DNA from: a virus
DNA length: 64,000 nucleotides
Direction: 5' to 3' (one strand)
IMG/VR virus record: IMGVR_UViG_3300017971_000201
Location: 1 to 64,000 of that record
The notes below the pieces were generated by a model. It did no database searches. It was not told the origin of the DNA and saw nothing but the letters and a program-made list of their open reading frames with translations. This document shows positions 16,722 to 29,929 of the stretch, in pieces (positions within the stretch are counted from its first letter, which is position 1; every line of letters starts with the position of its first letter). The position numbers and the translations under genes were made by a program.

Positions 16722-18395
16722 GTGGCGAACAAGGCCATCTTCCAGGGCGCGACCGCAGGTCGCTCCGTTCCCGCAACCGACACCGTGAACAATGCCGGAG
16801 GCCGGGCATACGAGTTCGGCCCGAAGCACGCGCTCGCACAGCTGGCGTGCACCGGCACCTTCAACGAGACCTTCTACGGCACTGCCGTCGACCAGCTCGA
16901 GGGCATCCGCAAGGCGGCCGACCAGGTCGAGCCCACCTTCCTCGCCAAGTGCGCGGTCTACGCGCGCCAGAAGGGCGGGATGAAGGACATGCCGGCGGCA
17001 CTCATCGTCATGCTGTCGAAGGCCGACCCGGCCCTGTGCTCGCTCGTCTTTCCCCTGGTCATCGACAACGGGAAGATGGTCCGCAACCTGGTCCAGATGG
17101 TCCGCTCCGGCGCGCTCGGCCGGAAGTCGATGGGGTCTGGCCTCAAGCGGCTCGTCAACAAGTGGATCCAGCAGCGGTCGGCGCGCGCGCTCTTCCGCGC
17201 GACTGTGGGGAAGAGCCCCAGCCTGGCCGATGTGATCCAGCTCACTCACCCGAAGGCGAAGGACGAGGAGCAGAAGGCCCTCATCGGCTACATCCTCGGC
17301 CGAGAGCACGACGCGTCCAAGCTGCCTGGCATCGTCCAGCACTACGAGGCGTTCAAGCGCGGCGAGTCGGACGAGGTCCCCGACGTGGACTTCCGGCAGC
17401 TCACCTCGCTGCCGCTCAAGCCGCATCACTGGGCGCAGATCGTCCGCAACGGCGGATACCAGTTCACCATCAAGAACCTCAACACGGCGGCGCGCCACGG
17501 CGTGTTCGACGCGCCTGGGCTGTCCGAGCTGATCGCGGCCCGGATCGCCAACCGTGAGGAGCTGGAGAAGGCCAGGATCTTCCCCTACCAGCTGCTCGTG
17601 GCCTATCTGAACGCGGGCAGGCACCCGGACCCGACCTACCAGCGGTACATGGCCTACTTCCGTCGCCACAATGAGACGGCACGCTCTGAGATCGACCTGC
17701 CCGACTCGGTCAGGGACTCTCTCCAGGACGCGATGGAGGCGGCGACCGAGAACGTCCCCAGCTTCGGCGTGCCCACGGCGGTGATCGTGGACGTCAGCGG
17801 CTCGATGCAGTCCCCGGTCACGGGCGAGCGGAAGGGCTCGACGACCAAGGTCCGATGCGTGGACGTGGCCGGCCTCATGGCAGCCACCGTGCTTCGCCGG
17901 AACAAGGGTTCGATCGTGATCCCCGTGGACGCCGACGTCCACAGCACGCGGATCGTCAACCCGCGCGACACGGTCGTGACGAACGCCATCAAGCTGTCCC
18001 AGATGGGTGGCGGCGGGACCAACCTCTCGCTGGCCCTTTCCCACCTGAACAAGCTGAAGAGGTCGCACGAGTTCAAGCTCGTGATCATCGTCAGCGACAA
18101 CGAGTCGTGGGTCGACTCTCGCGGGTGCGCGGGCTACTACGGCCGTGGAACCCGGCTCATGGATGAGTTCCGCCAGCTCCAGCAGAAGGCCGGCGGCGCG
18201 CGGATGGTCTGCATCGACATCACGCCGAACAGGAGCACCCAGGCGCCGAGCGCGCCGGACGAGATCATGAACATCGGTGGGTTCTCGGACTCGATCTGGA
18301 GTACCATCAACCGCTTCGCGGCCGGCGACACGCACGACGTGGACGCCTGGGTCGCAGAGATTGAGGCGATCAGCCTCGAGCAGCCGGAGGTGTAA
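16722..18395 (+). CDS. rsr: Ro60/TROVE-domain RNA-binding protein (Rsr)
   Basis: NNAGGRAY, LAQLACTGTFNETFY, ARIFPYQL, C-terminal VWA VDVSGSM...GGGTN...SDNESW...IGGFSD. Confidence 0.92.
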   Translation: MANKAIFQGATAGRSVPATDTVNNAGGRAYEFGPKHALAQLACTGTFNETFYGTAVDQLEGIRKAADQVEPTFLAKCAVYARQKGGMKDMPAALIVMLSKADPALCSLVFPLVIDNGKMVRNLVQMVRSGALGRKSMGSGLKRLVNKWIQQRSARALFRATVGKSPSLADVIQLTHPKAKDEEQKALIGYILGREHDASKLPGIVQHYEAFKRGESDEVPDVDFRQLTSLPLKPHHWAQIVRNGGYQFTIKNLNTAARHGVFDAPGLSELIAARIANREELEKARIFPYQLLVAYLNAGRHPDPTYQRYMAYFRRHNETARSEIDLPDSVRDSLQDAMEAATENVPSFGVPTAVIVDVSGSMQSPVTGERKGSTTKVRCVDVAGLMAATVLRRNKGSIVIPVDADVHSTRIVNPRDTVVTNAIKLSQMGGGGTNLSLALSHLNKLKRSHEFKLVIIVSDNESWVDSRGCAGYYGRGTRLMDEFRQLQQKAGGARMVCIDITPNRSTQAPSAPDEIMNIGGFSDSIWSTINRFAAGDTHDVDAWVAEIEAISLEQPEV

Positions 18396-18396
18396 C

Positions 18397-18651
18397 GTGG
18401 GCGATCCGTTCTACTCGGTCCACTGCGTCGCCAAGATCGATGACGAGTTCGTCACCTACCGAGAGGTCTACCTCCTCGGACCGCAGTTCTGCGGAGGCGA
18501 GAAGCACGTGATCGCCAGGGTCTACCCGGAGGCCGAGCAGAATGCGCTGGCTGACGACAGTCGGCTGATGGGACTGCCGGAGGAGGTGAGGGAATTCCTC
18601 CGGTGGGCCGAGCGGAACGTCGTCTGTCCAGTCGTACGGCGGTCGGACTAG
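18397..18651 (+). CDS. Hypothetical protein
   Basis: ORF directly after rsr. Confidence 0.5.
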   Translation: MGDPFYSVHCVAKIDDEFVTYREVYLLGPQFCGGEKHVIARVYPEAEQNALADDSRLMGLPEEVREFLRWAERNVVCPVVRRSD

Positions 18652-19109
18652 GAACGTGGAGCCGACGCCGGACAGCCGCGAGTGGCGCGAGTACTGGCGC
18701 GAACGGGAGAAGAACCCCGAACAGCGCCGGGAGACGCGGCGCGAGAAGCGCGCGGCCCGGCGTCGGTTCCACAAGCGCTCGAGAAGTGCCGCAAGACGAT
18801 CTCTTCGAGAAACGTCTGGACAAACGGAAGACTCGATCTAGGATCAGCAGCGTGATCTGCATCCGCAGCACGAACGAGAACGATGAAGCGCCGCGAGCCC
18901 AAGACCGTGTGTCTGGCCCGCGTGAACGACGCGGGCGACATCCAGTGCGTCACCTCACCGATGACGCGCTCGGATGCGGAGGCTCTCCAGGAGCAGACGC
19001 GCTTCTCCACCCGGATAATCCCGAGAATACAAGCGGCGCGTAGGCGCGCCGGCCGAGATCTTCGGTCCCGCCTGCGCGCCTGAAGCCCGCCGGGAGCGAG
19101 CTTCACCCC

Positions 19110-19177
19110 GCCCCAGTCTGCGAGGCAGATCGCGATCTTGTACGTCGCGAGGCTCGGTGCGACTCCGAGCTGGGGCT
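19110..19177 (+). tRNA. Non-canonical tRNA-Thr(TGT)-like
   Basis: gccccag/ctggggc acceptor, minimal D arm, 7-bp anticodon stem with loop cttgtac. Confidence 0.6.
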
Positions 19178-19283
19178 TTTCTCAGAAACGATGACAGGTC
19201 TCCGGGCCTCAGTCGTAAGAGGGTCAGTCAAGACGAGGGCGCACCAACCGGCCTTGCTAGCCGGACCTGGGCGTCAACGCACA

Positions 19284-19296
19284 GCTGTTTGACAAC
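19284..19296 (+). promoter_or_regulatory. boxA-like antitermination site
   Basis: gctgtttgacaac just before the first canonical tRNA; repeated at 27312. Confidence 0.55.
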
Positions 19297-19307
19297 TCGC
19301 TGTCTTT

Positions 19308-19379
19308 GGGATCTTAGCTTAGGAAGTAGAGCGCCCGGCTGAAAACCGGAAGGCCCGAGTGCAACTCTCGGAGATCCCA
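19308..19379 (+). tRNA. tRNA-Phe(GAA)
   Basis: Cloverleaf; loop ctgaaaa. Confidence 0.9.
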
Positions 19380-19382
19380 TCT

Positions 19383-19457
19383 GGTCGCGTGGTGTAGCCA
19401 AGTCAACATGCCAGCCCGTCAAGCTGGAGATCGCGGGTGCGAATCCCGTCGCGACCG
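19383..19457 (+). tRNA. tRNA-Asp(GTC), C at position 33
   Basis: ccagc-ccgtcaa-gctgg. Confidence 0.85.
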
Positions 19458-19576
19458 TCATGGGAACCTGGCTGGTACCCAGAGGAGGAGCAGAGCGCTT
19501 CGCAAGAACAGGAGGTGACCTGGTGAGAGGTACGCTCACCGCAGAGGCGAATACCTAGGGTCGGAATCAACACCGA

Positions 19577-19648
19577 TCCTGGGATGCTCGATGGTCGAGT
19601 AGCCGCCTGTTAAGCGGAATGATGTGGGTTCGAGTCCCACCCCAGGAG
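19577..19648 (+). tRNA. tRNA-Asn(GTT)
   Basis: Loop ctgttaa; canonical TTC T loop. Confidence 0.85.
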
Positions 19649-19657
19649 TACAAACTC

Positions 19658-19695
19658 ACCGTCAGGTTCTCGGTGCGAATCCGAGGGGGTGAGCC
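19658..19695 (+). pseudogene. Orphan 3' half of a tRNA (Asn-like)
   Basis: accgtc-aggtt-ctcgg tgcgaat ccgag-ggggtga-g with no D arm upstream. Confidence 0.55.
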
Positions 19696-19697
19696 GC

Positions 19698-19769
19698 GCG
19701 TCGCAGGGAGATCAGTTCATCCGTCGGTCTGCAACACCGAAGAACCCGGTGCGACTCCGGGGCGGCGCT
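19698..19769 (+). tRNA. tRNA-Cys(GCA)
   Basis: tcggt-ctgcaac-accga; U73. Confidence 0.85.
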
Positions 19770-19772
19770 TCT

Positions 19773-19844
19773 AGGTCGCGCGCAAGGTACGCGGGCGGGT
19801 CTCCAAAACCTGCCGTCTGCTGGGTGCAAGTCCCAGGCGGCCTG
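19773..19844 (+). tRNA. tRNA-Trp(CCA)
   Basis: gcgggt-ctccaaa-acctgc; short D arm. Confidence 0.85.
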
Positions 19845-19846
19845 TC

Positions 19847-19914
19847 GTCCGAATGCCGTTCGAGTCTACATCTACCAACACGCTGTGACTCGGCAACAAC
19901 AACGTCGGACACCA
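19847..19914 (+). ncRNA. Short Y-RNA-like gene 1
   Basis: gtccgaatgcc...ctacatc...ggcaac...aacgtcggac-acca terminal stem. Confidence 0.7.
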
Positions 19915-19915
19915 T

Positions 19916-19988
19916 TGCCCCCTAGCTCAACTAGTAGAGTGCTTGGCTCTGAACCAAGAGGTTGTCGGTGCGAATCCGACGGGGGCTG
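19916..19988 (+). tRNA. tRNA-Gln(CTG)
   Basis: cttgg-ctctgaa-ccaag. Confidence 0.9.
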
Positions 19989-19992
19989 TCAT

Positions 19993-20068
19993 CGCGTGGT
20001 AGAGCAGTCAGGTTGTGCTCGCTGGGCTCATAACCCGGAGGTCGTAGGTTCGAATCCTACCCACGCTA
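19993..20068 (+). tRNA. tRNA-Met(CAT), initiator type
   Basis: 1:72 mismatch, GGG/CCC anticodon stem, loop ctcataa. Confidence 0.9.
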
Positions 20069-20072
20069 ACAA

Positions 20073-20146
20073 TGCGCGGTAGTCTAGTCAGGTACGACAC
20101 TGGGCTCATAACCCAGAGATTGCAGGTTCGAATCCTGTCCGCGCGA
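20073..20146 (+). tRNA. tRNA-Met(CAT), initiator type
   Basis: ctggg-ctcataa-cccag. Confidence 0.85.
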
Positions 20147-20151
20147 TCTGT

Positions 20152-20223
20152 TGCCCCCTAGCTCAAGAGTAGAGCGTCCGGCTTTGAACCGGAAGGTTGA
20201 GGGTGCGACTCCCTCGGGGGCTG
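20152..20223 (+). tRNA. tRNA-Gln(TTG)
   Basis: tccgg-ctttgaa-ccgga. Confidence 0.9.
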
Positions 20224-20275
20224 TCGGAACGCACGACCGGACGTTCCCTTTTCCCCTTTCGTCCCGTCGTGCTCT

Positions 20276-20346
20276 GGGGCATTGGTGAAACAGGATCACG
20301 CGGGCTTTGCAAGCCTGAATTGAGAGTGCGACTCTCTCATGCTCCA
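20276..20346 (+). tRNA. tRNA-Ala(TGC)
   Basis: G3:U70; loop tttgcaa. Confidence 0.9.
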
Positions 20347-20349
20347 TGC

Positions 20350-20420
20350 GGGCCATTCGTACAACAGCAGGACATCTCTCTTACAAGGAGAAGACGGGGG
20401 TGCGACTCCCTCATGGCCCA
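20350..20420 (+). tRNA. tRNA-Val(TAC)
   Basis: Loop cttacaa. Confidence 0.9.
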
Positions 20421-20429
20421 AAGGAACAC

Positions 20430-20501
20430 GCGGCCTTAGTTCCAGCAGCAGAACACCGGCTTGCCATGCCGGAGGCACGGGTGCAAATCCCGTAGGCCGC
20501 T
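20430..20501 (+). tRNA. tRNA-Gly(GCC)
   Basis: ccggc-ttgccat-gccgg. Confidence 0.9.
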
Positions 20502-20505
20502 TCAA

Positions 20506-20586
20506 CCGTCTGGGGTCCACCTAGTGGTGGTGCCGCGCTGTAAACGCGGTCCTTCGGGCAACGTGGTGCGAATCCACGCAGGCGGA
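20506..20586 (+). tRNA. tRNA-Tyr(GTA) with C1:G72
   Basis: ccgtctg/caggcgg acceptor; ccgcg-ctgtaaa-cgcgg; variable arm. Confidence 0.85.
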
Positions 20587-20651
20587 TCGGATCGCAAGCA
20601 GCACGGCAAGGTCCGGCTGGCCCGGTGAGCCCCACTGGGTATCCGGCGCAC

Positions 20652-20722
20652 GCGGCCTTGGCGTAGTAGTAACGCGTCAGCTTCCCAAGCTGACCGCACG
20701 GGTGCAACTCCCGTAGGCCGCT
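20652..20722 (+). tRNA. tRNA-Gly(CCC)
   Basis: tcagc-ttcccaa-gctga. Confidence 0.9.
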
Positions 20723-20726
20723 TCAA

Positions 20727-20801
20727 GCTCGGTTGGTGAAAGAGAATCACGCGAGGTTGTGGACCTCGAGTTCTACGGTGCGATTCCGAGACCGGGTACC
20801 A
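20727..20801 (+). tRNA. tRNA-His(GTG)
   Basis: cgagg-ttgtgga-cctcg; irregular T stem; encoded CCA. Confidence 0.8.
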
Positions 20802-20802
20802 A

Positions 20803-20874
20803 GCCCCCATGGCCTAACAGACAAGGCGCGTGGCTACGGACCATGAGATCCGGGTGCAACTCCTGGTGGGGGTA
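20803..20874 (+). tRNA. tRNA-Arg(ACG)
   Basis: cgtgg-ctacgga-ccatg. Confidence 0.9.
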
Positions 20875-20878
20875 TCGA

Positions 20879-20953
20879 CGGGCACGAGTCTCCAGATGAG
20901 CTGTCGCGCCTTATATGCGTAACGGCCGGGTGCAACTCCCGGGTGCCCTACCA
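20879..20953 (+). tRNA. tRNA with TAT anticodon (Ile-UAU-like)
   Basis: gggcac/gtgccc acceptor, gcgc-cttatat-gcgt, encoded CCA. Confidence 0.65.
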
Positions 20954-20984
20954 GCTCCGCTAGCCCAACAGCAGAGGCGCCGGT
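20954..20984 (+). pseudogene. 5' half of split short-arm tRNA-Leu
   Basis: gctccgc-ta-gcccaacagcagaggc-gccggt; D arm identical to tRNA-Leu(CAG) at 21771; acceptor pairs with gcggagc at 21681. Confidence 0.8.
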
Positions 20985-21012
20985 AGACAAAGCAGTAACG
21001 ACGCTGTAAAAC
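20984..21012 (+). promoter_or_regulatory. Sigma70-like promoter at left junction of HNH cassette
   Basis: TAGACA-17 nt-TAAAAC (preceded by TG), 6 nt before ATG. Confidence 0.5.
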
Positions 21013-21018
21013 AGAGGT

Positions 21019-21585
21019 ATGCGCAAAGAAATCTACCGTAGTCCCCCGCAGCAGATGCATGGTTATGTGGCCTACATCGTTCGCTACGACGACGGATTCA
21101 AGACCACGTTGTTCGAGCACCGGCTTGTGATGGAGCAACATCTAGGGAGGGCGCTACGGTCCGACGAAGTCGTTCATCACATAGATGGCGACAAGACAAA
21201 CAACGCGGCCGAGAACCTGGAACTTACTACTCCGTCGAAGCACGCGTCGAAGCACGCACGTCCGGCGCCGATAGTCGACCTGACCTGTCTGGTATGTGAG
21301 CGCTCGTTTGTCCGGCTAGCTCGGAAGGAACAGGAAAGGATCAGGCGTAGGAAGCGCGGCCCGTACTGCGGCAAGAAGTGCGCGGGGGTAGGTAGTCGCA
21401 AGCATCGTGGCAGGAAACGGGACAGCAAAGGCCGTATTCGATGTAGCGACTGCAAGCTCTTCCTACCAGAAGCAGAGTTTTGCAGGGAGCGCGGCAGGCC
21501 GGGTGGTCTGAGTTACAGGTGCAGATCCTGTAAGGCGGCCCAATTTCAATACAGGAAGAACAAGCAAGCCTCGGTGGCGGAATAG
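21019..21585 (+). CDS. HNH homing endonuclease with Zn fingers
   Basis: EHRLVMEQHLGRAL..EVVHHIDGDKTNNAAENLEL; CxxC pairs. Confidence 0.9.
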   Translation: MRKEIYRSPPQQMHGYVAYIVRYDDGFKTTLFEHRLVMEQHLGRALRSDEVVHHIDGDKTNNAAENLELTTPSKHASKHARPAPIVDLTCLVCERSFVRLARKEQERIRRRKRGPYCGKKCAGVGSRKHRGRKRDSKGRIRCSDCKLFLPEAEFCRERGRPGGLSYRCRSCKAAQFQYRKNKQASVAE

Positions 21586-21650
21586 CAGACGCGCTGGTCT
21601 CAAGAACCAGTGTCCGAAAGGACGTGTGGGTGCGAATCCCACCCGAGGCA
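21568..21650 (+). tRNA. tRNA-Leu(CAA), long variable arm, nested in split tRNA-Leu
   Basis: ctggt-ctcaaga-accag; overlaps the HNH stop codon. Confidence 0.9.
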
Positions 21651-21688
21651 AACACAGGAGGTTCCCAGTGCAAATCTGGGGCGGAGCA
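21651..21688 (+). pseudogene. 3' half of split tRNA-Leu
   Basis: acagg-aggtt-cccag tgcaaat ctggg-gcggagc-a. Confidence 0.8.
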
Positions 21689-21690
21689 AC

Positions 21691-21764
21691 GGTCCCGTAG
21701 CCCAATCAGCAGAGGTCCCGGCCTAAACCCAGGAACGGTCTCGGTGCAAATCCGAGGCGGAGCA
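21691..21764 (+). pseudogene. Chimeric/degenerate tRNA-Leu
   Basis: 5' ggtcccg does not pair with 3' gcggagc; D and T arms intact. Confidence 0.6.
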
Positions 21765-21770
21765 TCACAC

Positions 21771-21843
21771 GATCCTGTAGCCCAACAGCAGAGGCGCCGC
21801 ACTCAGGATGCGGAGGTTGTCGGTGCAAATCCGACCAGGATCA
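21771..21843 (+). tRNA. tRNA-Leu(CAG), short variable loop
   Basis: ccgca-ctcagga-tgcgg; 5-nt variable region. Confidence 0.9.
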
Positions 21844-21845
21844 TC

Positions 21846-21913
21846 GCTCGAATGCCGTCGTGGACTACATCCTGAACACATGACGTCTGCGGCAACACCA
21901 ACGTCGAGCACCA
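21846..21913 (+). ncRNA. Short Y-RNA-like gene 2
   Basis: gctcgaatgcc...gactacatc...ggcaac...aacgtcgagc-acca; co-varying stem relative to 19847. Confidence 0.7.
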
Positions 21914-21914
21914 C

Positions 21915-21997
21915 GCTGCCGTGGCGGAACAGCAGACGCGCCTGGTTGAGGGCCAGGTTCCCGAAAGGGAGTGGAGGTGCAACTCCTCTCGGCAGCA
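21915..21997 (+). tRNA. tRNA-Leu(GAG)
   Basis: cctgg-ttgaggg-ccagg; long variable arm. Confidence 0.9.
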
Positions 21998-22001
21998 TCT
22001 T

Positions 22002-22074
22002 GGGGTCGTGGCCAAGCAGTAAGGCGCCGCTCTGATAAGGCGGAGACTCGTGAGTGCAAATCTCACCGGCCCCA
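22002..22074 (+). tRNA. tRNA-Ile(GAT)
   Basis: ccgct-ctgataa-ggcgg. Confidence 0.9.
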
Positions 22075-22092
22075 TGCGACGATGAAGATCGA

Positions 22093-22656
22093 GTGAACGT
22101 CTCGCACAAGCATCGGTTCGTCTTCCTCGCGAACATGCGCACGGGCACGCGCTGCGTGTTCCACGCGCTTCGCCGCTACTTCGCTTGCATCGGCGGTAGC
22201 CACGATGCCAGGACGCTGACACACAAGATCGGCATCCCGGCCGGCTGCGAGCGCTACCTCGTGATCGCCACGGTGCGAAACCCGTTCAGCAGGATGGTCT
22301 CCTGCTGGAACTGGGTGCGCGAGGTTCCCGGCTGGCCGAGCGGGATCGACAAGTTCGTGCGAGCGAATCCGCACGACTTCGCCGGCTTCGTCGAGCGCGC
22401 GATGTCGACCGGCTTCGACTCCCAGTCGAGGCGCCTGGGCGAGATCGAGCCGGACCAGCTGATCCGCTACGAGCGGCTCCAGGCGAGCTTCAGCGAGCTG
22501 CCGTTCGTCACCGACGAGCAGCTCCACATCGTTCCGCAGAGCCCGATCACGGCCAACTGGCAGAGCTGGTACAGGCCGGAGATCGAGAAGATGGTGGCCG
22601 AGAAGTGGGCCGATGACTTCGATCGCTTCGGCTACCCGAAGGTCATTGGAAGGTGA
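22093..22656 (+). CDS. Sulfotransferase family 2 protein
   Basis: SHKHRFVFLANMRTGT, VRNPFSRMVS, IRYERL, WADDFDRFGY. Confidence 0.8.
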   Translation: MNVSHKHRFVFLANMRTGTRCVFHALRRYFACIGGSHDARTLTHKIGIPAGCERYLVIATVRNPFSRMVSCWNWVREVPGWPSGIDKFVRANPHDFAGFVERAMSTGFDSQSRRLGEIEPDQLIRYERLQASFSELPFVTDEQLHIVPQSPITANWQSWYRPEIEKMVAEKWADDFDRFGYPKVIGR

Positions 22657-22734
22657 ACCGGACAAGCGAACCGGAGCGGCCTGCTAAGTCGTCTGTCCCC
22701 TTCGGGGGATGTGGTGCAAGTCCACCTCCTTCCG
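22648..22734 (+). tRNA. tRNA-Ser(GCT), 8/4 fold
   Basis: cggc-ctgctaa-gtcg; ggaaggtg/ctccttcc acceptor; 4-bp T stem. Confidence 0.85.
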
Positions 22735-22887
22735 TTCGAGCAAGCACTGCCCTCTGTGGCCCGGTGCTCGTCGCGTCGAGCTGTTCGCTAGATCGGTCGT
22801 TCCCGGATGGTGCTGCTACGGCAGCGAGATCGGATCAATGATAGTTCCTCGTGGCGTCAGGAAGATCAGCTAAGAGAGGAGGAGGCT

Positions 22888-23463
22888 ATGGGCCTTCTAG
22901 TGGACGACCCTTGCCTCGTCCTCAACAGATCCTGGCAGGTAGTGGGGTTTCTCCCGATCGGGACCTGCATCGCCACTGTCATGCGCGATATGGCCTCGAT
23001 CATGTGCCCGACGTCGTACTTCCTCATGGACCTGGACGAGTGGATCGACAGAGCTGAGACTGACAGGTTCATCAAGACAGCCAGCACTCCGATCCCGGCG
23101 CCCGAGGTGATCGTACTGAAGAAGTACGGCGAGAGGCCCCCGCGCAAGGTGAGCTTCAACCGCCCGAACCTCTACAGACGGGACGAGCACACCTGCCAGT
23201 ACTGTGGCGAGGAACTCCCGCCCAAGAACCTCACGATCGATCACGTGCTACCGAGATCGAAGGGAGGTCCCACGACCTGGGAGAACACGGTGGCAGCCTG
23301 CCGCTCGTGCAACCAGAGGAAGGCCGACAAGACCACTGACGAGGCGCGTATGAAGCCTCGGAAGAAGCCCGCCGCCCCACGCTGGACACCTGGAGTCAGG
23401 ATCCCGCGAGGCGAGGTCAGGGCTAGCTGGGAGCCATTCCTGGCGAAGGAGCGGGTCGCCTAG
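22888..23463 (+). CDS. HNH endonuclease (McrA-like, tRNA-array associated)
   Basis: LVLNRSW, RDEHTCQYCG, TIDHVLPRSKGG, WENTVAACRSCNQRK; ggagg RBS. Confidence 0.9.
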   Translation: MGLLVDDPCLVLNRSWQVVGFLPIGTCIATVMRDMASIMCPTSYFLMDLDEWIDRAETDRFIKTASTPIPAPEVIVLKKYGERPPRKVSFNRPNLYRRDEHTCQYCGEELPPKNLTIDHVLPRSKGGPTTWENTVAACRSCNQRKADKTTDEARMKPRKKPAAPRWTPGVRIPRGEVRASWEPFLAKERVA

Positions 23464-23481
23464 GAGGCCCGTCTCCGCCCC

Positions 23482-23565
23482 GGAGCCGAGAACCTGGGGT
23501 AGTCCTGGGGCTCGCTTGGAAAGCGATGCGTTCTTCGGATTGGAGTGCGACTCTCCCCGGCTCCG
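23482..23565 (+). tRNA. tRNA-Ser(GGA)
   Basis: tcgc-ttggaaa-gcga; 4-bp T stem. Confidence 0.8.
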
Positions 23566-23573
23566 TGCTTGCT

Positions 23574-23783
23574 ATGATCGGCGCTGTGAAAAGCAAGATC
23601 GAAGTAGGCGAAACGGTACTTAGAGCGACGCTTGGATCCAGCGGTGATCTAGTTGTCGTCTCGGGTATCGAATCAGACAACGGCGTGGTCACCCGCTACC
23701 TGGTTAAGCCTGTAGCTCAACCAGACAGCGAGCCTGAACTAGTTCCTGCTGATCTGATTCACAGCCTACGCAAACGCCCCTGA
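23574..23783 (+). CDS. Small hypothetical protein
   Basis: Lower-GC ORF between tRNAs. Confidence 0.45.
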   Translation: MIGAVKSKIEVGETVLRATLGSSGDLVVVSGIESDNGVVTRYLVKPVAQPDSEPELVPADLIHSLRKRP

Positions 23784-23811
23784 AGCAGAAGCAGTGCTGC
23801 GCCTGCCTCGT
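23776..23811 (+). pseudogene. 5' half of split tRNA-Thr(CGT)
   Basis: gcccctg-aa-gcag..ctgc-g-cctgc-ct-cgt. Confidence 0.75.
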
Positions 23812-23892
23812 CGCTCTGGGTGGGCGCAGAGACGAGAATTGTCAGACGTCTTTATCGCACCATGTTCTGTGCTCAGGTAAAGCCCGGAACAA

Positions 23893-23963
23893 GCTCCTGT
23901 AGTTCAACAGCAGAATGCCTCTCTCGTAAGGAGGAGACGCGGGTGCAATTCCCGCCGGGAGCT
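23893..23963 (+). tRNA. tRNA-Thr(CGT), nested in split tRNA-Thr(CGT)
   Basis: cctct-ctcgtaa-ggagg. Confidence 0.9.
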
Positions 23964-23976
23964 TCAGCCTCAGATC

Positions 23977-24015
23977 CGTAAGCAGGAGAACCCGGTGCGA
24001 CTCCGGGCGGGAGTA
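23977..24015 (+). pseudogene. 3' half of split tRNA-Thr(CGT)
   Basis: cgt-aa-gcagg-agaa-cccgg tgcgact ccggg-cgggagt-a. Confidence 0.75.
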
Positions 24016-24019
24016 TCAA

Positions 24020-24091
24020 GCTCGCGTCGTCCAACAGATAGGATACGAGCCTCCGAAGCTCGAGATCTGGGTGCGACTCCCAGCGCGGGTA
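24020..24091 (+). tRNA. tRNA-Arg(CCG)
   Basis: cgagc-ctccgaa-gctcg. Confidence 0.9.
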
Positions 24092-24166
24092 TACAGGATG
24101 GACCCAGCTCCGGCTGGGGTAAATAGCGGCTGGCTGCACACCATCCTCATCAGTCAGTCGCGCCAA

Positions 24167-24240
24167 CAGGGCGTGGCGCAGTCTAGCAGCGCGTTGGTCT
24201 GGGGGACCAAAGGTCGTGGGTGCGAATCCCACCGCCCTGA
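24167..24240 (+). tRNA. tRNA-Pro(GGG)
   Basis: ttggt-ctggggg-accaa. Confidence 0.9.
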
Positions 24241-24267
24241 TCAGGAACGGGCAGACCCGTTCCGCTT

Positions 24268-24338
24268 GCCCTGATAGCTTAGTAGCAGAGCACTCGCTTG
24301 GTACGCGAGAGATCCCGGTGCGACTCCGGGTCAGGGCT
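24268..24338 (+). tRNA. tRNA-Thr(GGT)
   Basis: ctcgc-ttggtac-gcgag. Confidence 0.9.
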
Positions 24339-24343
24339 TAGAC

Positions 24344-24631
24344 ATGGCGAAGCTACGACGAGAGAAGCTGCCGGACGGAACCGACGCCGGCCTGCTGTCG
24401 TTCCAGTGTCCAGGCTGTGGCGCGCGCCACGCCTTCCGCATCATGTTCGACCCGGACCTGCCCGAAGAGCAGGTATGGTCGTGGAACGGCGACATGGACG
24501 GGCCGACGTTCGACCCAGCGCTGAAGGCCCCAGGCTGCCACCTCCGGTGCGTCGAGGGCAAGCTGCACTTCTTCGTCGACTCGGGGCACAAGCTCGCCGG
24601 CCGGCTCGTGGACCTGCCCGACGAGCTGTGA
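24344..24631 (+). CDS. DUF6527-like Zn-binding protein
   Basis: FQCPGCGARH, WSWNGDMDGPTFDP, CH, DSGHKLAG. Confidence 0.7.
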   Translation: MAKLRREKLPDGTDAGLLSFQCPGCGARHAFRIMFDPDLPEEQVWSWNGDMDGPTFDPALKAPGCHLRCVEGKLHFFVDSGHKLAGRLVDLPDEL

Positions 24632-24632
24632 C

Positions 24633-24818
24633 GTGGCCGATTGCGATCACGAGTGGGAGGAGATCCACCACTACGGCGAGGATCTCGAGGGCCGGCTGAT
24701 CCACTACTGCCCGACCGGCTTCAAGTGGTGCAGGCTCTGCCGCAGGGTCGAAGACGAAGACAACCCCCAGTGCCATCTCTGGGGCGAACCAGATCCGATA
24801 CAACCCGCAGACACGTAG
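24633..24818 (+). CDS. Small Cys/His protein
   Basis: CDHEW...WCRLC. Confidence 0.45.
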   Translation: MADCDHEWEEIHHYGEDLEGRLIHYCPTGFKWCRLCRRVEDEDNPQCHLWGEPDPIQPADT

Positions 24819-24872
24819 AGTGGGCTCGCTCTCATAAGGCGATGCAAGACGGTGCAAGCCCGTCCTGCGGGA
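24804..24872 (+). tRNA. tRNA-Met/Ile2(CAT), elongator type with reduced D arm
   Basis: cccgcag/ctgcggg; tcgct-ctcataa-ggcga. Confidence 0.7.
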
Positions 24873-24876
24873 TCAT

Positions 24877-24913
24877 GGAACGTGAACCGGACAAGCGTGC
24901 CGGGCCGGTCTCG
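24877..24913 (+). pseudogene. 5' half of split tRNA-Ser(CGA)
   Basis: ggaacgtg-aa-ccggacaagcgtgccgg-gc-cggt-ct-cg; near-identical to the 5' end of Ser(GCT) at 22648. Confidence 0.85.
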
Positions 24914-24944
24914 CGCTACGATCCCGTCAATTACGGGGTGCATC

Positions 24945-25559
24945 ATGCCGGGCAAACGGCGACCGGACCTGAGAGAACGGGCCATCAACCTGCGGTGCAA
25001 GCAGAAGCTCGGCAGGAACGAGATTGCGCGTTGCCTTGGAGGGCTGGTGAGCCCTGTAACTGTTGGCCGGTGGTTGCGGAACCACCCGCTCCGTAAGAAC
25101 GAGGAGCGGCGGGTTCGCGAGACTGCCATCAAGAAAAGGCGCCCACGGCAACCGAAGCAGCCGAGAGTTCACTGCGAGGTCTGCGGAAAGAAGTGCAGTC
25201 GCGGGGCGAAGCGTTTTTGCTCTGATTGCGCGGTCGGACGAGTACGAAGTCCCAGACGAGAACCGACACAGCGTTACCTCGTCGAAGACAGGCTGGTCAA
25301 CTCGACGCGCCTCAAGACAAGACTCATCGAGGAGGGTTATCTAGAGGATCGTTGCGGCAAGTGCGGTTCGTTGCCGGAGTGGAACGGTGAGCCGCTCAAC
25401 CTCCAGCTGGATCACATCGACGGAAACCGTAGGAACAATCTTCTCAGCAACCTTCGGATTGTTTGTCCCAATTGCCACTCGCAGACGCCGACCTACGCTG
25501 CCAGGAATCGCAGGAATCCGAAGAGGTCGAGAAGGAAGCCGCGTTACGCGCACGAATGA
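24945..25559 (+). CDS. HNH homing endonuclease with N-terminal HTH
   Basis: CGKCG..EWNGEPLNLQLDHIDGNRRNNLLSNLRIVCPNCHSQT. Confidence 0.9.
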   Translation: MPGKRRPDLRERAINLRCKQKLGRNEIARCLGGLVSPVTVGRWLRNHPLRKNEERRVRETAIKKRRPRQPKQPRVHCEVCGKKCSRGAKRFCSDCAVGRVRSPRREPTQRYLVEDRLVNSTRLKTRLIEEGYLEDRCGKCGSLPEWNGEPLNLQLDHIDGNRRNNLLSNLRIVCPNCHSQTPTYAARNRRNPKRSRRKPRYAHE

Positions 25560-25563
25560 AATT

Positions 25564-25653
25564 GGAGAGCGTCCGGCTAGACGAGGAGCACGTCTCGAAA
25601 ACGTGTAGGGCGTACGTAAGTGCGTCTTCAGGGTGCGAGTCCCTGGCTCTCCG
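25564..25653 (+). tRNA. tRNA-Ser(CGA), canonical 7/5 fold, nested
   Basis: cacgt-ctcgaaa-acgtg; ggagagc/gctctcc. Confidence 0.9.
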
Positions 25654-25667
25654 TAGGAGCGGGAAGA

Positions 25668-25715
25668 CGAAAACCGTGCGTCCTTCGGGTTGGGGTGCAA
25701 CTCCTCCGCGTTCCG
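25668..25715 (+). pseudogene. 3' half of split tRNA-Ser(CGA)
   Basis: cga-aa-accg-variable arm-gggg tgcaact cctc-cgcgttcc-g. Confidence 0.85.
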
Positions 25716-25718
25716 TCA

Positions 25719-25791
25719 CAGGGTGTAGCTTAGGAGCAAAAGCGCCGCGTTCGGGACGCGGAGAGCGTGGGTGCGAGTCCCACCACCCTGA
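25719..25791 (+). tRNA. tRNA-Pro(CGG)
   Basis: ccgcg-ttcggga-cgcgg. Confidence 0.9.
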
Positions 25792-25815
25792 TCAACCATG
25801 AGGTAGAACATCTGC

Positions 25816-26262
25816 ATGAACGAACCCGAATGGTGCGCTCTCTGCGCGGACGCTCCGGCCGTCGGCCGGCTCTTTCCAGTGGTCTACCTCACGCAGGATG
25901 AGGTGAAGTCGGAGCGCCCGCTGCCGAGACACGAGACTCGCTGCTGCGCGCGGTGCGGGAACCAGGCGTCCGACAGCTTCGTTGACGAGAACTTCGAGAC
26001 CGGCCGGATGGCTGTACTCCAGTTCGAGCACGACGACTTCGCGAAGGTCTCCGAGAAGCGGATCCTCGAGCTGGTCGGTCAGCTCGAGAACGCGCAGTGC
26101 TCGCTGTGCGGTAAGAAGATGGAGAACGACCCGGATGCCATGCCGGCGCGTCCGCTGGCCGAGAAGCTGCTCCGGGAGCATCCGAACATGAAGTACGTGA
26201 CAGCAGTGTGCGCCGACTGCGCGCCGAGCTGCCCGTGCTGCGACGAAGAAGAGAACAACTAG
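25816..26262 (+). CDS. Multi-CxxC Zn-finger protein
   Basis: Four CxxC pairs plus CPCC. Confidence 0.65.
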   Translation: MNEPEWCALCADAPAVGRLFPVVYLTQDEVKSERPLPRHETRCCARCGNQASDSFVDENFETGRMAVLQFEHDDFAKVSEKRILELVGQLENAQCSLCGKKMENDPDAMPARPLAEKLLREHPNMKYVTAVCADCAPSCPCCDEEENN

Positions 26263-26333
26263 GGGCAGTAGCTCAATAGGAGAGCGCCTCGTTCGCAACG
26301 AGGAGGTTGTCGGTGCGACTCCGATCTGCTCCA
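26262..26333 (+). tRNA. tRNA-Ala(CGC)
   Basis: cctcg-ttcgcaa-cgagg. Confidence 0.9.
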
Positions 26334-26334
26334 T

Positions 26335-26422
26335 GAAGGCGTGACGAATCAGCGTCGTGGCTCGCGAGTGCGTTACGGAACTTGGGATCGTCGGGCTCCG
26401 GGTGCAACTCCCGGCGTCTTCA
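26335..26422 (+). ncRNA. tRNA-like RNA without a canonical anticodon arm
   Basis: gaaggcg/cgtcttc acceptor, D hairpin gacg/cgtc, T arm ccggg-tgcaact-cccgg. Confidence 0.55.
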
Positions 26423-26426
26423 TCAA

Positions 26427-26499
26427 GGGGCCTTAGCTCAGTTAGGAGAGCGCCGATCTGGCAGGTCGGAGGTCACGAGTGCGAATCTCGTAGGCTCCA
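26427..26499 (+). tRNA. tRNA-Ala(GGC)
   Basis: ccgat-ctggcag-gtcgg. Confidence 0.9.
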
Positions 26500-26500
26500 T

Positions 26501-26583
26501 GGAAGGTGATCTCGGCCAGCTGCCGAGCGCGGTTTTGAAAACCGATGGAGCTTCGGCTTGGGGTGCAACTCCTCCGCCTTCCG
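26501..26583 (+). tRNA. tRNA-Ser(TGA), 8/4 fold
   Basis: cggt-tttgaaa-accg; ggaaggtg/cgccttcc. Confidence 0.85.
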
Positions 26584-26584
26584 T

Positions 26585-26668
26585 GGGCTTCTACCGGAGA
26601 CCCAGTTCATGAGCGTGGTGGCCGGGCTCGCTAGCAGGGCGGGGTTCGATTCCCTCTGGAGGCTCCCA
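26585..26668 (+). ncRNA. tRNA-like element (T arm plus terminal stem)
   Basis: gggcttcta/tggaggctc stem, gggg-ttcgatt-ccct, ends cca. Confidence 0.4.
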
Positions 26669-26670
26669 AA

Positions 26671-26744
26671 GGGCGCGTAGCTCAGTTAGTCAGAGTGCCT
26701 CGGTGACATCGAGGAAGTCCTGGGTGCGAATCCCAGCGTGCCCA
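26671..26744 (+). tRNA. tRNA-Val(GAC)
   Basis: cctcg-gtgacat-cgagg. Confidence 0.9.
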
Positions 26745-26832
26745 TCGCAACTCGCGCGAGCGAGTCTGTGATGGTGGAGTGCGTCCGGTCTTCCGGTCGC
26801 CCCCGGCCGAGCCCCTCCCGGCTCGGCCACCT

Positions 26833-26903
26833 GGCCCCACGGTCTAGTAGCAAGATGCGAGTCTTTCACGCTCGAGAGGAGGGTGCGATTCCCTCTGGGG
26901 TCA
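26833..26903 (+). tRNA. tRNA-Glu(TTC)
   Basis: cgagt-ctttcac-gctcg. Confidence 0.9.
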
Positions 26904-26964
26904 TCGGCGATCCGCGCGACCGGCGGATGTAAGCGAGGCCACGCGCGGCCCCGCCCCAGCTCAC

Positions 26965-27035
26965 GCGGACGTACGTCAACAGCAGACTGTCGGGCTTCCA
27001 ACCCGTCGATGCCGGTGCAAATCCGGTCGTCCGCT
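26965..27035 (+). tRNA. tRNA-Gly(TCC)
   Basis: cggg-cttccaa-cccg. Confidence 0.85.
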
Positions 27036-27039
27036 TCCT

Positions 27040-27109
27040 GCCCCCGGCAGAGAGGCAGCCGGCTCTTCTAAAGCTGGCCTTCCCGGTGCGACTCCGGGCG
27101 GGGGTACCA
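27040..27109 (+). tRNA. Non-canonical tRNA-Arg(TCT)-like
   Basis: gcccccg/cgggggt, no clear D stem, 7-bp stem gccggct-cttctaa-agctggc, encoded CCA. Confidence 0.65.
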
Positions 27110-27110
27110 C

Positions 27111-27182
27111 GGGTCTGTGGTGTAACAGGAGCACACTCGGCTTTTACCCGAGGCGGTCAGGGTGCGAATCCCTGCGGACCCA
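27111..27182 (+). tRNA. tRNA-Lys(TTT)
   Basis: ctcgg-cttttac-ccgag. Confidence 0.9.
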
Positions 27183-27241
27183 TGAAACTTCCTTGCGGTT
27201 GTCGGCCGCAGGGTATAACCAAGACAGCGAGTGAAGGAGTC

Positions 27242-27306
27242 GTGCCGGTCCGAAGCCGATCCGTTTTCCCCACTTTCCCCCTTTAGGAAAAGCAACTGGC
27301 CGGCGC
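27242..27306 (+). ncRNA. Y-RNA-like gene, animal-Y-like architecture
   Basis: gtgccggtc-cgaag ... polypyrimidine loop ... ctggccggcgc. Confidence 0.7.
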
Positions 27307-27311
27307 GCTCC

Positions 27312-27324
27312 GCTCTTTGACAAC
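27312..27324 (+). promoter_or_regulatory. boxA-like antitermination site
   Basis: gctctttgacaac upstream of tmRNA. Confidence 0.6.
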
Positions 27325-27340
27325 TCGGGCACGAACACAC

Positions 27341-27689
27341 GGGGCTGACATGGCATCGACCGGGTCAGTGAATCTCGTGCTGCGTGTAGAGGTCCCCGGT
27401 TGGCCTCTCTAAACAACCGGGAAACTGAACAATTGCCAACGCACCTGTTCGCCTGGCAGCCTAAAAAGGCCGCCCCCAGCTGGATCCCCCGCCCATGGGG
27501 TGAAAGATCTGGGCCATAAGATGGGCTGGTCCCGCGCTGGAGTCTCAGCGGCAACGGACGAGAAACTACTGCGACGCCCCACGACCAGCATCCTGCTCTC
27601 GGTCTGGTCGCGGGTAAGCTCGAGAGCTACGCACGTAGACGCACGAAGGGATCGACTACGGGACCGGGGTTCGATTCCCCGCAGCTCCA
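27341..27689 (+). ncRNA. ssrA: tmRNA
   Basis: 5' ggggctga..gg.atcgac; tag ORF 27435-27464 = ANAPVRLAA*; 3' gaccggggttcgattccccgcagctcca. Confidence 0.95.
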
Positions 27690-27699
27690 GGTATCTCCA

Positions 27700-27728
27700 T
27701 TGAGCATCTCTCCTCCGCTCCATACAAT
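27700..27728 (+). promoter_or_regulatory. Sigma70-like promoter
   Basis: TTGAGC-17 nt-TACAAT followed by ggagg RBS. Confidence 0.6.
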
Positions 27729-27746
27729 CGGATCGGAGGTGCCGAG

Positions 27747-28352
27747 ATGCCCACAATGGAGACGATCGAGTGCGCCAGCTGCGGCCAGTCGGTTGAGAAG
27801 CCGCTCGGCGAGGTCACTCGATCGAAGAAGCTCGGCAGACCGATGTTCTGCGGTCTGTCGTGCTCGGCAACGCACAGGAACGCGACCAGAAAGGCGCGCG
27901 AGTTCGAGATGACCTGCGAGTGCGGTGAGGTGTTCACCACCACGACGCGCAACAAGGCCAAGCGTCACTGTTCGCGCTCATGTGCGAGCAGATTCTCGAT
28001 GACCAGAAGACGCCGGTCAGCGCAGCGCGCGGCCGGCAAGAAGCACAAGCAGAACCTCGACACAGCCAAGGCTATGAGGTCGCGAGAGGCTTGGAAGTAC
28101 TCGCTGCTGCGAGAAGAGTTGGGAGACCGGCCACATGAGTTCGAGTTCGAGCTTGGCGGTCGCATTTTCGACCTAGCCCTTCTCGACACCAAGATGCTGG
28201 TCGAGTTCGACGGTCCTAGTCATCGTGAAGGCCGACAACGGATGGAAGACGGAGCGAAAGACAAGCTCGCCGCCAAACTAGGATGGCGAGTCGTTCGACG
28301 GGAGGTGAAGCGGGCGACCGTGATCCACCCCTCGACGATCGAGGACTTGTAG
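27747..28352 (+). CDS. Zn-finger + DUF559/Vsr-like endonuclease
   Basis: Two CxxC..FC/HC.xxC repeats; FDLAL..LVEFDGPSH..D..KD..GWRVVR. Confidence 0.8.
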   Translation: MPTMETIECASCGQSVEKPLGEVTRSKKLGRPMFCGLSCSATHRNATRKAREFEMTCECGEVFTTTTRNKAKRHCSRSCASRFSMTRRRRSAQRAAGKKHKQNLDTAKAMRSREAWKYSLLREELGDRPHEFEFELGGRIFDLALLDTKMLVEFDGPSHREGRQRMEDGAKDKLAAKLGWRVVRREVKRATVIHPSTIEDL

Positions 28353-28375
28353 GGGTTCGATTCCCGCCAGCTCCA
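28352..28375 (+). repeat. Displaced duplicate of tmRNA 3' end
   Basis: ggggttcgattcccgccagctcca vs ggggttcgattccccgcagctcca at 27666-27689. Confidence 0.85.
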
Positions 28376-28379
28376 TCGA

Positions 28380-28453
28380 CGCGCGGTGGGCTAATCCGGT
28401 ACGCCGCCGGGCTCATAACCCGGAGACTGGGGGTTCGAATCCCTCCCGCGCTA
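28380..28453 (+). tRNA. tRNA-Met(CAT), initiator type
   Basis: ccggg-ctcataa-cccgg; 1:72 mismatch. Confidence 0.85.
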
Positions 28454-28480
28454 TCCCCTCTCGTCGATCACGATGTCGGC

Positions 28481-28603
28481 CGGCGGCCGAATGAACTGAC
28501 GGGAGTACATCAGTGAGCGCAGGCTCCTCTAGGTAACCTGGACTCGGCAGGGCTAGGAGGAGCCGACAACCCGGCGGCGTGACCGCAAGCTCTCACGTCG
28601 CCG
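28481..28603 (+). ncRNA. Y-RNA-like gene (longer, non-tRNA effector domain)
   Basis: cggcggccgaatg..ggagtacatc ... cacgtcgccg. Confidence 0.55.
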
Positions 28604-28641
28604 ACCAGGCGGTCGTGGGTGAGATCCCCGCGACCGTCATA

Positions 28642-28715
28642 GGACCGAATGCTCCGGCGGGACTACATCTTGAGGAGACGTTTCGTCTCGCTGACCCCAC
28701 AACGTCGGTCCACTA
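28642..28715 (+). ncRNA. Short Y-RNA-like gene 3
   Basis: ggaccgaatgc..gggactacatc ... caacgtcggtcc. Confidence 0.7.
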
Positions 28716-28721
28716 GAACAA

Positions 28722-28876
28722 CCCACGAATGCCTTGGGAGACTACATCCTGCAAGCCGGTGTCCGAATGGACGTGCGGGTTCGAGTCCCGCCCGGCCGCC
28801 TCGACGGCCGGTGGCGGAATGGTAGACGCGCCGGAGGTGGAGACACCATGAAGTCCCCCGCCCCTTACGTCGTGGG
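28722..28876 (+). ncRNA. yrlA: YrlA-type Y RNA (permuted tRNA mimic)
   Basis: cccacgaatgcc..gactacatc; then variable arm, T arm gcggg-ttcgagt-cccgc, loop-closed acceptor ccggccg/cggccgg, D arm tggcggaatggtagacgc; 3' acgtcgtggg closes the terminal stem. Confidence 0.85.
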
Positions 28877-28898
28877 CTCCACACAACACGTGCTAGGG

Positions 28899-29375
28899 AT
28901 GTACCTGTTCGGCTTCATCGTCGAAGACGACAAGACGCTGACCCCTGGTCTGATGGAGCGGATCGTGTCCGAGGAGAATCGCAGCGTGGTGGACATCCTC
29001 GCGGACATCGGCAAGACGCCGAAGGAGATCCGCCAGCTGATGCGCGAGACCGCCGAAGACATGGCGAGATGGTGCCTGCGCACGCACGTGCGTCCGGTCG
29101 ATGCCCGACACCGGATCCACGCCGCTGCGATGTCCGTCTTGAAGGGCCGGCGCTTCTCGGGAGCCTCCCCGAAGAGGTCGGCCGACAAGATGGTCTCGAG
29201 GATCATGTGCGACTACGAGCGCGACTACGGTAACTGGCTCGCCAGGGTGCGGCGCGAGCGAGCCCGGCAGGAGCGCGACGGCGAAGCCTACGTCCCCTGG
29301 CAGCAGCGTCATGCCAAGCAGCGTGCCGACGAACTCAAGAAGCGGTGGAAGGGCCGGCGGCGCGGGAAGCGATGA
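28899..29375 (+). CDS. Hypothetical protein
   Basis: ORF starting MYLFGFIV. Confidence 0.55.
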   Translation: MYLFGFIVEDDKTLTPGLMERIVSEENRSVVDILADIGKTPKEIRQLMRETAEDMARWCLRTHVRPVDARHRIHAAAMSVLKGRRFSGASPKRSADKMVSRIMCDYERDYGNWLARVRRERARQERDGEAYVPWQQRHAKQRADELKKRWKGRRRGKR

Positions 29376-29656
29376 GGAACCGCATCCAGAAGAACGATCG
29401 CGTCATCCTGGTGGACAACAGGATCCACCCGGAGATTCCGAACGGCACGCGCGGATGGGCCTACCACATCGCTACGATGATGGGCGGTGACGTATACGTG
29501 CGGTGGACCGATCGCTCGCCAGATGGCAGTTGCATCGATGACTGCTACTTCCCGCAGAGCTGCCTGGACCATCTGAGTGCTGTCGATCGGCTGGCAGAGC
29601 TGGTCAGCGCTGACCTGGGGTCGGGGAACACAGGTCCCCCAAGTGTTCTCCCATAA
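29372..29656 (+). CDS. Small SH3-like protein with SAVDRL motif
   Basis: DRVILV..GTRG..VYVRW..LDHLSAVDRLAELV. Confidence 0.6.
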   Translation: MRNRIQKNDRVILVDNRIHPEIPNGTRGWAYHIATMMGGDVYVRWTDRSPDGSCIDDCYFPQSCLDHLSAVDRLAELVSADLGSGNTGPPSVLP

Positions 29657-29706
29657 ACCTAGATTTTTCCGACAGGAGGAGCTAGGCTCTCGGTAGAGCT
29701 TGACCC

Positions 29707-29925: not shown

Positions 29926-29929
29926 GCAC

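Follow-up and report, generated by a model that had tools for sequence, protein, structure and literature searches.

A tRNA-Leu gene in the tRNA array of an uncultured, high-GC jumbo phage is interrupted within its anticodon loop by a 664-nt insert, encoding an HNH endonuclease and a complete tRNA that reads the same codon as the interrupted gene. I consider it probable that the insert is a cassette consisting of a free-standing HNH homing endonuclease and a linked long-variable-arm tRNA-Leu(CAA), lodged in the anticodon loop of a resident short-variable-arm tRNA-Leu(CAA) gene that persists as a relic, with the spare tRNA acting as rescue.

The stretch of DNA analysed (hereafter referred to as the window) is the first 64 kb of a 159,664-bp IMG/VR virus record, which is ∼58% complete and has a G+C content of 65%. 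It contains a co-oriented array of ∼36 tRNA genes and a tmRNA, located between 19.1 and 30.0 kb by ARAGORN and Rfam, and the split gene is found in the leucine block of this array. A separately assembled ENA contig (L185) is 100% identical to the window across positions 18055–24585, and the locus is therefore not an assembly artefact. Its features are as follows:

20954–20984, + strand: 5′ half (nt 1–31) of a disrupted short-variable-arm tRNA-Leu(CAA), from the D-arm signature, the ARAGORN join and the end of BLAST collinearity
20985–21018, + strand: insert leader, 34 nt, holding most of a promoter-like, sub-consensus TAGACA-17-TAAAAC sequence
21019–21585, + strand: ORF for an HNH_3-family endonuclease of 188 aa (Pfam HNH_3, E = 8.6e-13)
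21568–21650, + strand: intact long-variable-arm (class II) tRNA-Leu(CAA), the replacement isoacceptor (ARAGORN; Rfam tRNA, 53.8 bits)
21649–21688, + strand: 3′ half (nt 34–73) of the disrupted short-arm tRNA-Leu(CAA), from the ARAGORN join and alignment A2
21692–21764, + strand: element B, a defective short-arm tRNA-Leu(UAA)-like sequence, called by ARAGORN only at a lowered threshold
21771–21843, + strand: intact short-arm tRNA-Leu(CAG), the family-defining paralog (ARAGORN; Rfam, 57.4 bits)

An earlier note on this DNA had proposed a split short-arm tRNA-Leu gene from the pairing of gctccgc (20954–20960) with gcggagc (21681–21687), and both heptamers are indeed present. The 64 kb contain 10 copies of GCGGAGC on this strand, and the chance of one copy within 730 nt is p ∼0.1; the pairing is therefore weak evidence by itself, and it is the tRNA context, not the bare 7-mer, that establishes the split gene. 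The 5′ half comprises the acceptor strand, the D arm and the 5′ strand of the anticodon stem, while the 3′ half comprises the CAA anticodon, the 3′ strand of the anticodon stem, a 5-nt variable loop, a T arm (a 5-bp T stem with the TGC-type T loop of the array), the acceptor strand and A73. In alignment A2, against an intact relative, the two halves add up to 71 of 73 nt without overlap, and only CT (nt 32–33) is absent. With CT supplied, the joined halves are called by ARAGORN at its default threshold as a 73-nt tRNA-Leu(CAA), pairing at 7/7 positions of the acceptor stem, 5/5 of the T stem and 4/5 of the anticodon stem; a direct join without CT yields no tRNA call at this threshold. CT is not found at the left junction, and the anticodon stem of the joined halves has a G-A mismatch, which indicates that the insertion was not perfectly clean, or that the gene has decayed since.

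The D arm of the 5′ half matches that of the intact short-arm Leu(CAG) gene at 21771 base for base. Three matches to this D-arm signature were observed in the window, against 0.11 expected; two are exact, and the third, with two mismatches, is an unrelated tRNA-Ala. The ARAGORN call and this shared signature support the earlier proposal of a split short-arm tRNA-Leu. The anticodon, which the note had regarded as not recoverable and put down as CAA by inference, can in fact be read in part: AAAC (nt 35–38) survives at 21650–21653, and the C that precedes it is common to the 3′ end of the replacement tRNA, bases 21649–21650 belonging to both genes. CAA itself is corroborated by this residual CAAAC at the right junction, and by an ortholog reading CAA at the matching array position in a 131-kb viral contig (L080).

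Of 437 phage tRNAs from ∼85 loci, this ortholog matches the reconstituted gene best. The short-arm Leu(CAA) gene of L080 is 74 nt long and uninterrupted; its acceptor stem is not the same but co-varies. It follows an Ile(UAU)-like tRNA and precedes a long-arm Leu(GAG) and then Ile(GAU). The comparison with an intact homolog, which the note had suggested, therefore returns a leucine tRNA with the expected anticodon. BLAST collinearity of the window with both L080 and a closer relative, L182, stops exactly at 20984. The locus is polymorphic for the insert, being uninterrupted in L080 and holding other content in the closer relatives, a 275-kb contig (L076/L182/L184) and a 1.1-kb metagenome contig (L183). 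L182 and L183 keep the same 5′ half as an orphan, and no 3′ half is left. In L183, the orphan is followed by ∼165 nt encoding the end of a classical HNH motif (PHROG HNH, E = 1e-9), a region that a further deletion has reduced to ∼70 nt in L182, and the remnant frame runs into a different short-arm Leu(CAA) with another acceptor stem. The remnant shows no resemblance to the HNH_3 protein of the window, and resembles instead the HNH of a cassette in a tRNA-Ser gene of the window, described below (65% identity over 20 aa; CPNCNSQTPT versus CPNCHSQTPT). Sister lineages thus have two unrelated nuclease-plus-Leu(CAA) pairs in the same tRNA gene, at the same or a near loop position, which implies either at least two occupations of the site or a swap of cassette content.

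Further searches for this allele returned little. A 23-mer of the 5′ half retrieved only the two relatives with orphan halves from JGI metagenomes, a 20-mer of the 3′ half retrieved nothing from IMG/VR, and neither search brought up an uninterrupted allele with this very acceptor stem. A GenBank search for close phage relatives gave generic tRNA-level matches only.

The intact Leu(CAG) gene at 21771–21843 is 73 nt long, and identical in L182 and L183. Its D-arm signature, TAGCCCAAnAGCAGAGG, is carried by 29 distinct short-arm tRNAs from many IMG/VR viral contigs. All 29 have leucine anticodons, covering all six kinds, and no other isotype is represented; A73 is present in 28/29 and a TGC T loop in 27/29, and 28/29 are 73–74 nt in length without CCA. 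The reconstituted gene displays the full set of five traits (D-arm signature, 73–74 nt, leucine anticodon, A73, TGC T loop). Among the signature matches in viral contigs no further orphan short-arm Leu 5′ halves were seen, the other non-tRNA hits all resembling random matches within coding DNA. I came across no paper on short-arm, signature-bearing Leu tRNAs. Leucine charging of such tRNAs is plausible by analogy with E. coli, since A73 is crucial for leucine identity in that species but the long arm and the anticodon are not (PMC9976931). They nevertheless pose the question of how a bacterial LeuRS charges a class-I-shaped tRNA-Leu.

The two architectures also alternate at a neighbouring gene. 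Leu(GAG) is an 83-nt long-arm gene in the window (21915–21997) and in L080, and a 73-nt short-arm gene at the same position in the closest relatives (L182:3834–3906, L183:913–985). The flanks of this swap are conserved, with neither scar nor nuclease, and the long-arm and short-arm forms behave as interchangeable alleles.

The insert itself spans 20985–21648 (664 nt; 664–666 nt as a cassette), and is placed between nt 31 and nt 34 in the anticodon loop. At its left junction, the earlier note had seen a promoter, TAGACA (20984–20989) and TAAAAC (21007–21012) separated by 17 nt, followed by 6 nt to the ATG at 21019. The letters are there, but their role as a promoter is not supported: the −10 element ends in C rather than in the invariant T, and a sigma-70 promoter scan did not report the site. 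The left junction of the Ser cassette has no similar promoter-like sequence. If the site were used, transcription would start at about the ATG, and give a leaderless message.

The match of the ORF to Pfam HNH_3 is near full length (profile positions 4–45 of 46), PHROG HNH families match it as well (down to E = 5e-19), and an HH...N...NL...H motif can be made out in the translation. Translation from an alternative start, at 21055, yields a 176-aa form, as called in public data, and P0001 is 100% identical to the ORF product. The GC3 of the ORF is 0.67, as compared with 0.89–0.93 in resident neighbour genes, indicating a foreign origin. A PDB sequence search gave no match. The C-terminal half is Cys-rich and common to none of 64 viral loci and 36 database proteins, which share only the ∼50-aa HNH_3 core, and only 5 of the 64 viral loci lie near tRNAs; the nuclease is therefore not a member of a known tRNA-gene-targeting family. 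It would be a candidate for a nuclease that recognises a defined tRNA-gene sequence.

The replacement tRNA starts within this ORF, its first 18 nt (21568–21585) encoding the last five codons and the stop codon of the HNH protein. The note had taken this as physically tying the two together: the overlap is real, yet alone it is no proof of a unit. The long-arm Leu(CAA) has a phage-type D loop and a TGC T loop, as does the long-arm Leu(GAG) of the window, and an exact 28-mer of it matched nothing in 185,579 prokaryote genomes. The tRNA therefore derives from the phage tRNA pool rather than fresh from a host, and recent host capture is unlikely. The interrupted gene is dead: two of its loop bases are missing, no splicing apparatus is found, and the two halves remain as relics. 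UUG is still decoded through the isoacceptor that the cassette brings along, which is different in structure.

Two further tRNA genes of the window are parted in a comparable manner. Halves of a tRNA-Ser (24877–25715) and of a tRNA-Thr (23776–24015) flank an isoacceptor, with the breakpoint in the anticodon. The Ser halves enclose an HNH gene of the classical type (CPNCHSQTPT) and a tRNA-Ser(CGA), with the HNH stop codon 6 nt upstream of the inserted tRNA, so that a tight nuclease-tRNA linkage recurs. In L182 (4546–4632) the Ser halves are contiguous, but the anticodon is GCT. The Thr(CGT) halves flank a nested tRNA-Thr(CGT), without a nuclease.

From this anatomy I infer a cleavage specificity, a homing pathway and an immunity of the spare copy. 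During co-infection with a related phage that has the short-arm gene without an insert, the nuclease would cut that gene near the anticodon loop, and repair from the cassette-bearing genome would place copies of both nuclease and spare tRNA between the homologous halves. Cutting would not affect the spare tRNA itself, because its sequence differs on both sides of the anticodon stem-loop, with a different D arm and a long variable arm. It would also remove the fitness cost of the insertion, a role that splicing plays for introns and inteins. The nuclease is embedded in neither: there is no Rfam intron match, and the interrupted gene encodes an RNA, which leaves no place for an intein. The HNH gene is probably transcribed together with the array, and the RNase P cut at the 5′ end of the tRNA would remove the last HNH codons and the stop codon, and may throttle expression, as proposed for T4 segB.

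The region immediately downstream is less orderly. Element B has a mismatched acceptor stem and a C-A mismatch in the anticodon stem, and lacks nt 26; it is called neither by ARAGORN at default settings nor by Rfam at E ≤ 1. Its 3′ half has L080 Leu(TAA) as best match, while its 5′ acceptor strand, gtcccg, resembles that of the Leu(CAA) occupying the same position in L182. It is probably a decayed or chimeric gene and may, more speculatively, be a hybrid left at the end of a recombination or co-conversion tract. Its 3′ acceptor strand is a second gcggagc (21757–21763), and element B with this duplicated heptamer is an extra rearrangement beyond a simple insertion model.

The second heptamer raises the question, already put in the earlier note, of whether the 5′ half at 20954 belongs with the end at 21757, the 21649–21688 piece being unrelated. 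The two 3′ ends carry an identical 7-mer, and ARAGORN at a lowered threshold does fold the 5′ half with the 3′ part of element B. However, element B has a D arm and an anticodon arm of its own, the anticodon-stem strand of the 5′ half pairs at 4/5 positions with 21654–21658 and at 3/5 with the equivalent strand of element B, and only the join to 21649–21688 is called at the default threshold. The latter piece would otherwise be an orphan with no other 5′ partner, and I regard this assignment as the least probable of the readings. Hardly more credible, and largely refuted, is a split gene that still functions, with the 664 nt removed as a self-spliced or enzyme-spliced intron, or with the two pieces acting as a two-piece or ligated tRNA. 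Such a reading would have precedents, as group I introns with homing endonucleases occupy the anticodon loops of bacterial tRNA-Leu genes (PMC3984707), and pairing across the insert would still be possible for the whole acceptor stem (7/7) and for most of the anticodon stem. But apart from the ORF and the tRNA the insert comprises only 34 nt, too little for a ribozyme core, nt 32–33 are missing, and the relatives retain the 5′ half without the 3′ half. A group I intron (RF00028, Intron_gpI) gave no match at E ≤ 1 in 18500–30500, and none in the whole record; a group I or II intron was rejected for lack of any Rfam match. Splicing or ligation by enzymes was rejected likewise, as the tRNA splicing endonuclease (tRNA_int_endo, PF01974) and RtcB (PF01139) are absent from the 159.7-kb record, an absence that is not absolute, as it concerns the phage record alone, which is ∼58% complete.

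A more serious alternative, although still an unlikely one, is accidental juxtaposition, where illegitimate recombination or array shuffling broke the gene, and neither the HNH gene nor the long-arm tRNA is more than an unrelated passenger, without targeting or rescue. Phage tRNA arrays are mosaic, as the scarless Leu(GAG) exchange with L182 and L183 illustrates, element B testifies to additional messy rearrangement, and HNH_3 relatives are mostly found away from tRNAs. Moreover, any ORF entering a tRNA soon reaches a stop codon in the D loop. Chance does not, however, readily account for an inserted tRNA that reads the codon of the interrupted gene, for a breakpoint in the anticodon loop, or for halves that sum to a near-complete gene, as simple insertion predicts. 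The design also recurs, with another HNH family at this site in the relatives, and at the Ser and Thr genes of the window. I therefore favour the nuclease-plus-isoacceptor cassette.

The closest known parallel to such a cassette is SegB of phage T4, a free-standing GIY-YIG homing endonuclease of the T4 tRNA cluster that cuts tRNA-gene DNA and drags flanking tRNA genes along (PMC2330249), in a SegB-tRNA linkage that is widespread (PMC13096335). In both cases the nuclease gene is embedded among phage tRNA genes and co-oriented with them, and for segB the maturation of the next tRNA, tRNA-Arg, has been proposed to cut the message between the last codon and the stop codon (PMC2330249). In contrast to the HNH_3 cassette, which sits inside a tRNA gene, the GIY-YIG gene segB is located between tRNA genes, the recognition site of SegB is the T-psi-C region, at tRNA-gene 3′ ends, and not the anticodon loop, and neither an interrupted gene nor a dedicated spare isoacceptor has been described for it. 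The group I introns of bacterial tRNA-Leu(UAA) are likewise mobile, nuclease-bearing inserts in the anticodon loop (PMC3984707). The cassette differs from these in possessing no ribozyme or splicing: the host gene is destroyed, and its function kept by the second gene in the insert. A free-standing HNH gene inside a useful phage gene, without intron or intein, is also known from Aeromonas phage Aeh1, where mobE interrupts nrdA (PMC3045599). There, however, both nrdA pieces are functional and reassemble as protein, unlike the dead pieces and replacement copy seen here. The tRNAs of Nanoarchaeota and other archaea also occur as 5′ and 3′ halves parted at the anticodon loop (PMC4033280), but these are functional and joined by a splicing endonuclease and a ligase, neither of which was found here, and relatives of the present locus lack the 3′ half. 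In its logic, the cassette recalls the synthetic Cleave-and-Rescue (ClvR) elements, in which the nuclease destroys a gene that is needed and is linked to a version of it that resists cleavage (PMC6442612). ClvR is engineered, uses Cas9 and is placed at another locus, whereas the cassette sits in its presumed target and its activity is putative.

The literature searched yielded no account of a nuclease-plus-isoacceptor cassette within a tRNA gene, which is absence of evidence only. Homing endonucleases are thought to enter useful genes only inside a self-splicing intron or an intein, and otherwise to sit between genes. It is conceivable, and I put this forward tentatively as a generalization that could well fail, that jumbo-phage tRNA arrays host natural home-and-rescue elements, in which several nuclease families, each with a cleavage-resistant isoacceptor, invade the resident tRNA gene that reads the isoacceptor's codon, homing to its anticodon loop with no need for a ribozyme, and drive the turnover of short-arm and long-arm Leu genes across lineages. 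If true, a cassette that brings along a spare of its target which the nuclease fails to cut would add a third natural solution, and engineered cleave-and-rescue gene drives would have a counterpart in nature. Such a cassette would also account for the nuclease genes and tRNA fragments that litter phage tRNA arrays, the replacement of isoacceptors by others of different architecture at the same array position, and the fast change in array content between close relatives.

Several other features of the record were observed in passing. Two more HNH_3-type genes are present in the same phage record, at 39495–39647 of the window (− strand) and at G000:C1:84308–84670, which over the core are 41% and 38% identical to the nuclease of the Leu cassette; the latter gene has an in-frame TGA. 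Among the 35 ARAGORN tRNAs at 19110–30004 of the window, 29 have a GTGCRA T loop, with G at position 55, rather than GTTCRA, accompanied by D loops without GG. Exceptions are Tyr (10839), Asn, three Met and the Leu(TAA) at 29930. The DNA motif recognised by T4 SegB is GGTTCRANTCC (PMC2330249).

Some genes of the array are irregular or were detected by one program only. A tRNA at 20350–20420 has an Rfam match of 51 bits and was missed by ARAGORN; its L182 homolog is called Val(CAC). The tRNA-Ile(UAU)-like gene directly preceding the split gene (20879–20953) has an encoded CCA, irregular stems and the anticodon loop cttata, and was missed by both default ARAGORN and Rfam, although its position is kept in L182, L183 and L080. 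A tRNA-Sec-like match at 26501–26582 scores 36.8 bits, below the Rfam gathering score of 47. The 71-nt spacer between Leu(CAG) and Leu(GAG), at 21844–21914, is ∼90% conserved in L182 and L183, where nearby protein genes are only ∼75% identical, and may be a small RNA.

Directly upstream of the array, a 557-aa TROVE/vWA Ro60-like ORF is found at 16722–18395 (L185 gene table), and a weak YrlA-like Rfam match, at 22.4 bits far under gathering, lies inside the array at 28774–28829. The phage tmRNA is located at 27341–27690 (126 bits); a permuted-tmRNA call by ARAGORN at 27089–27555 overlaps it, and encloses the tRNA-Lys at 27111–27182.
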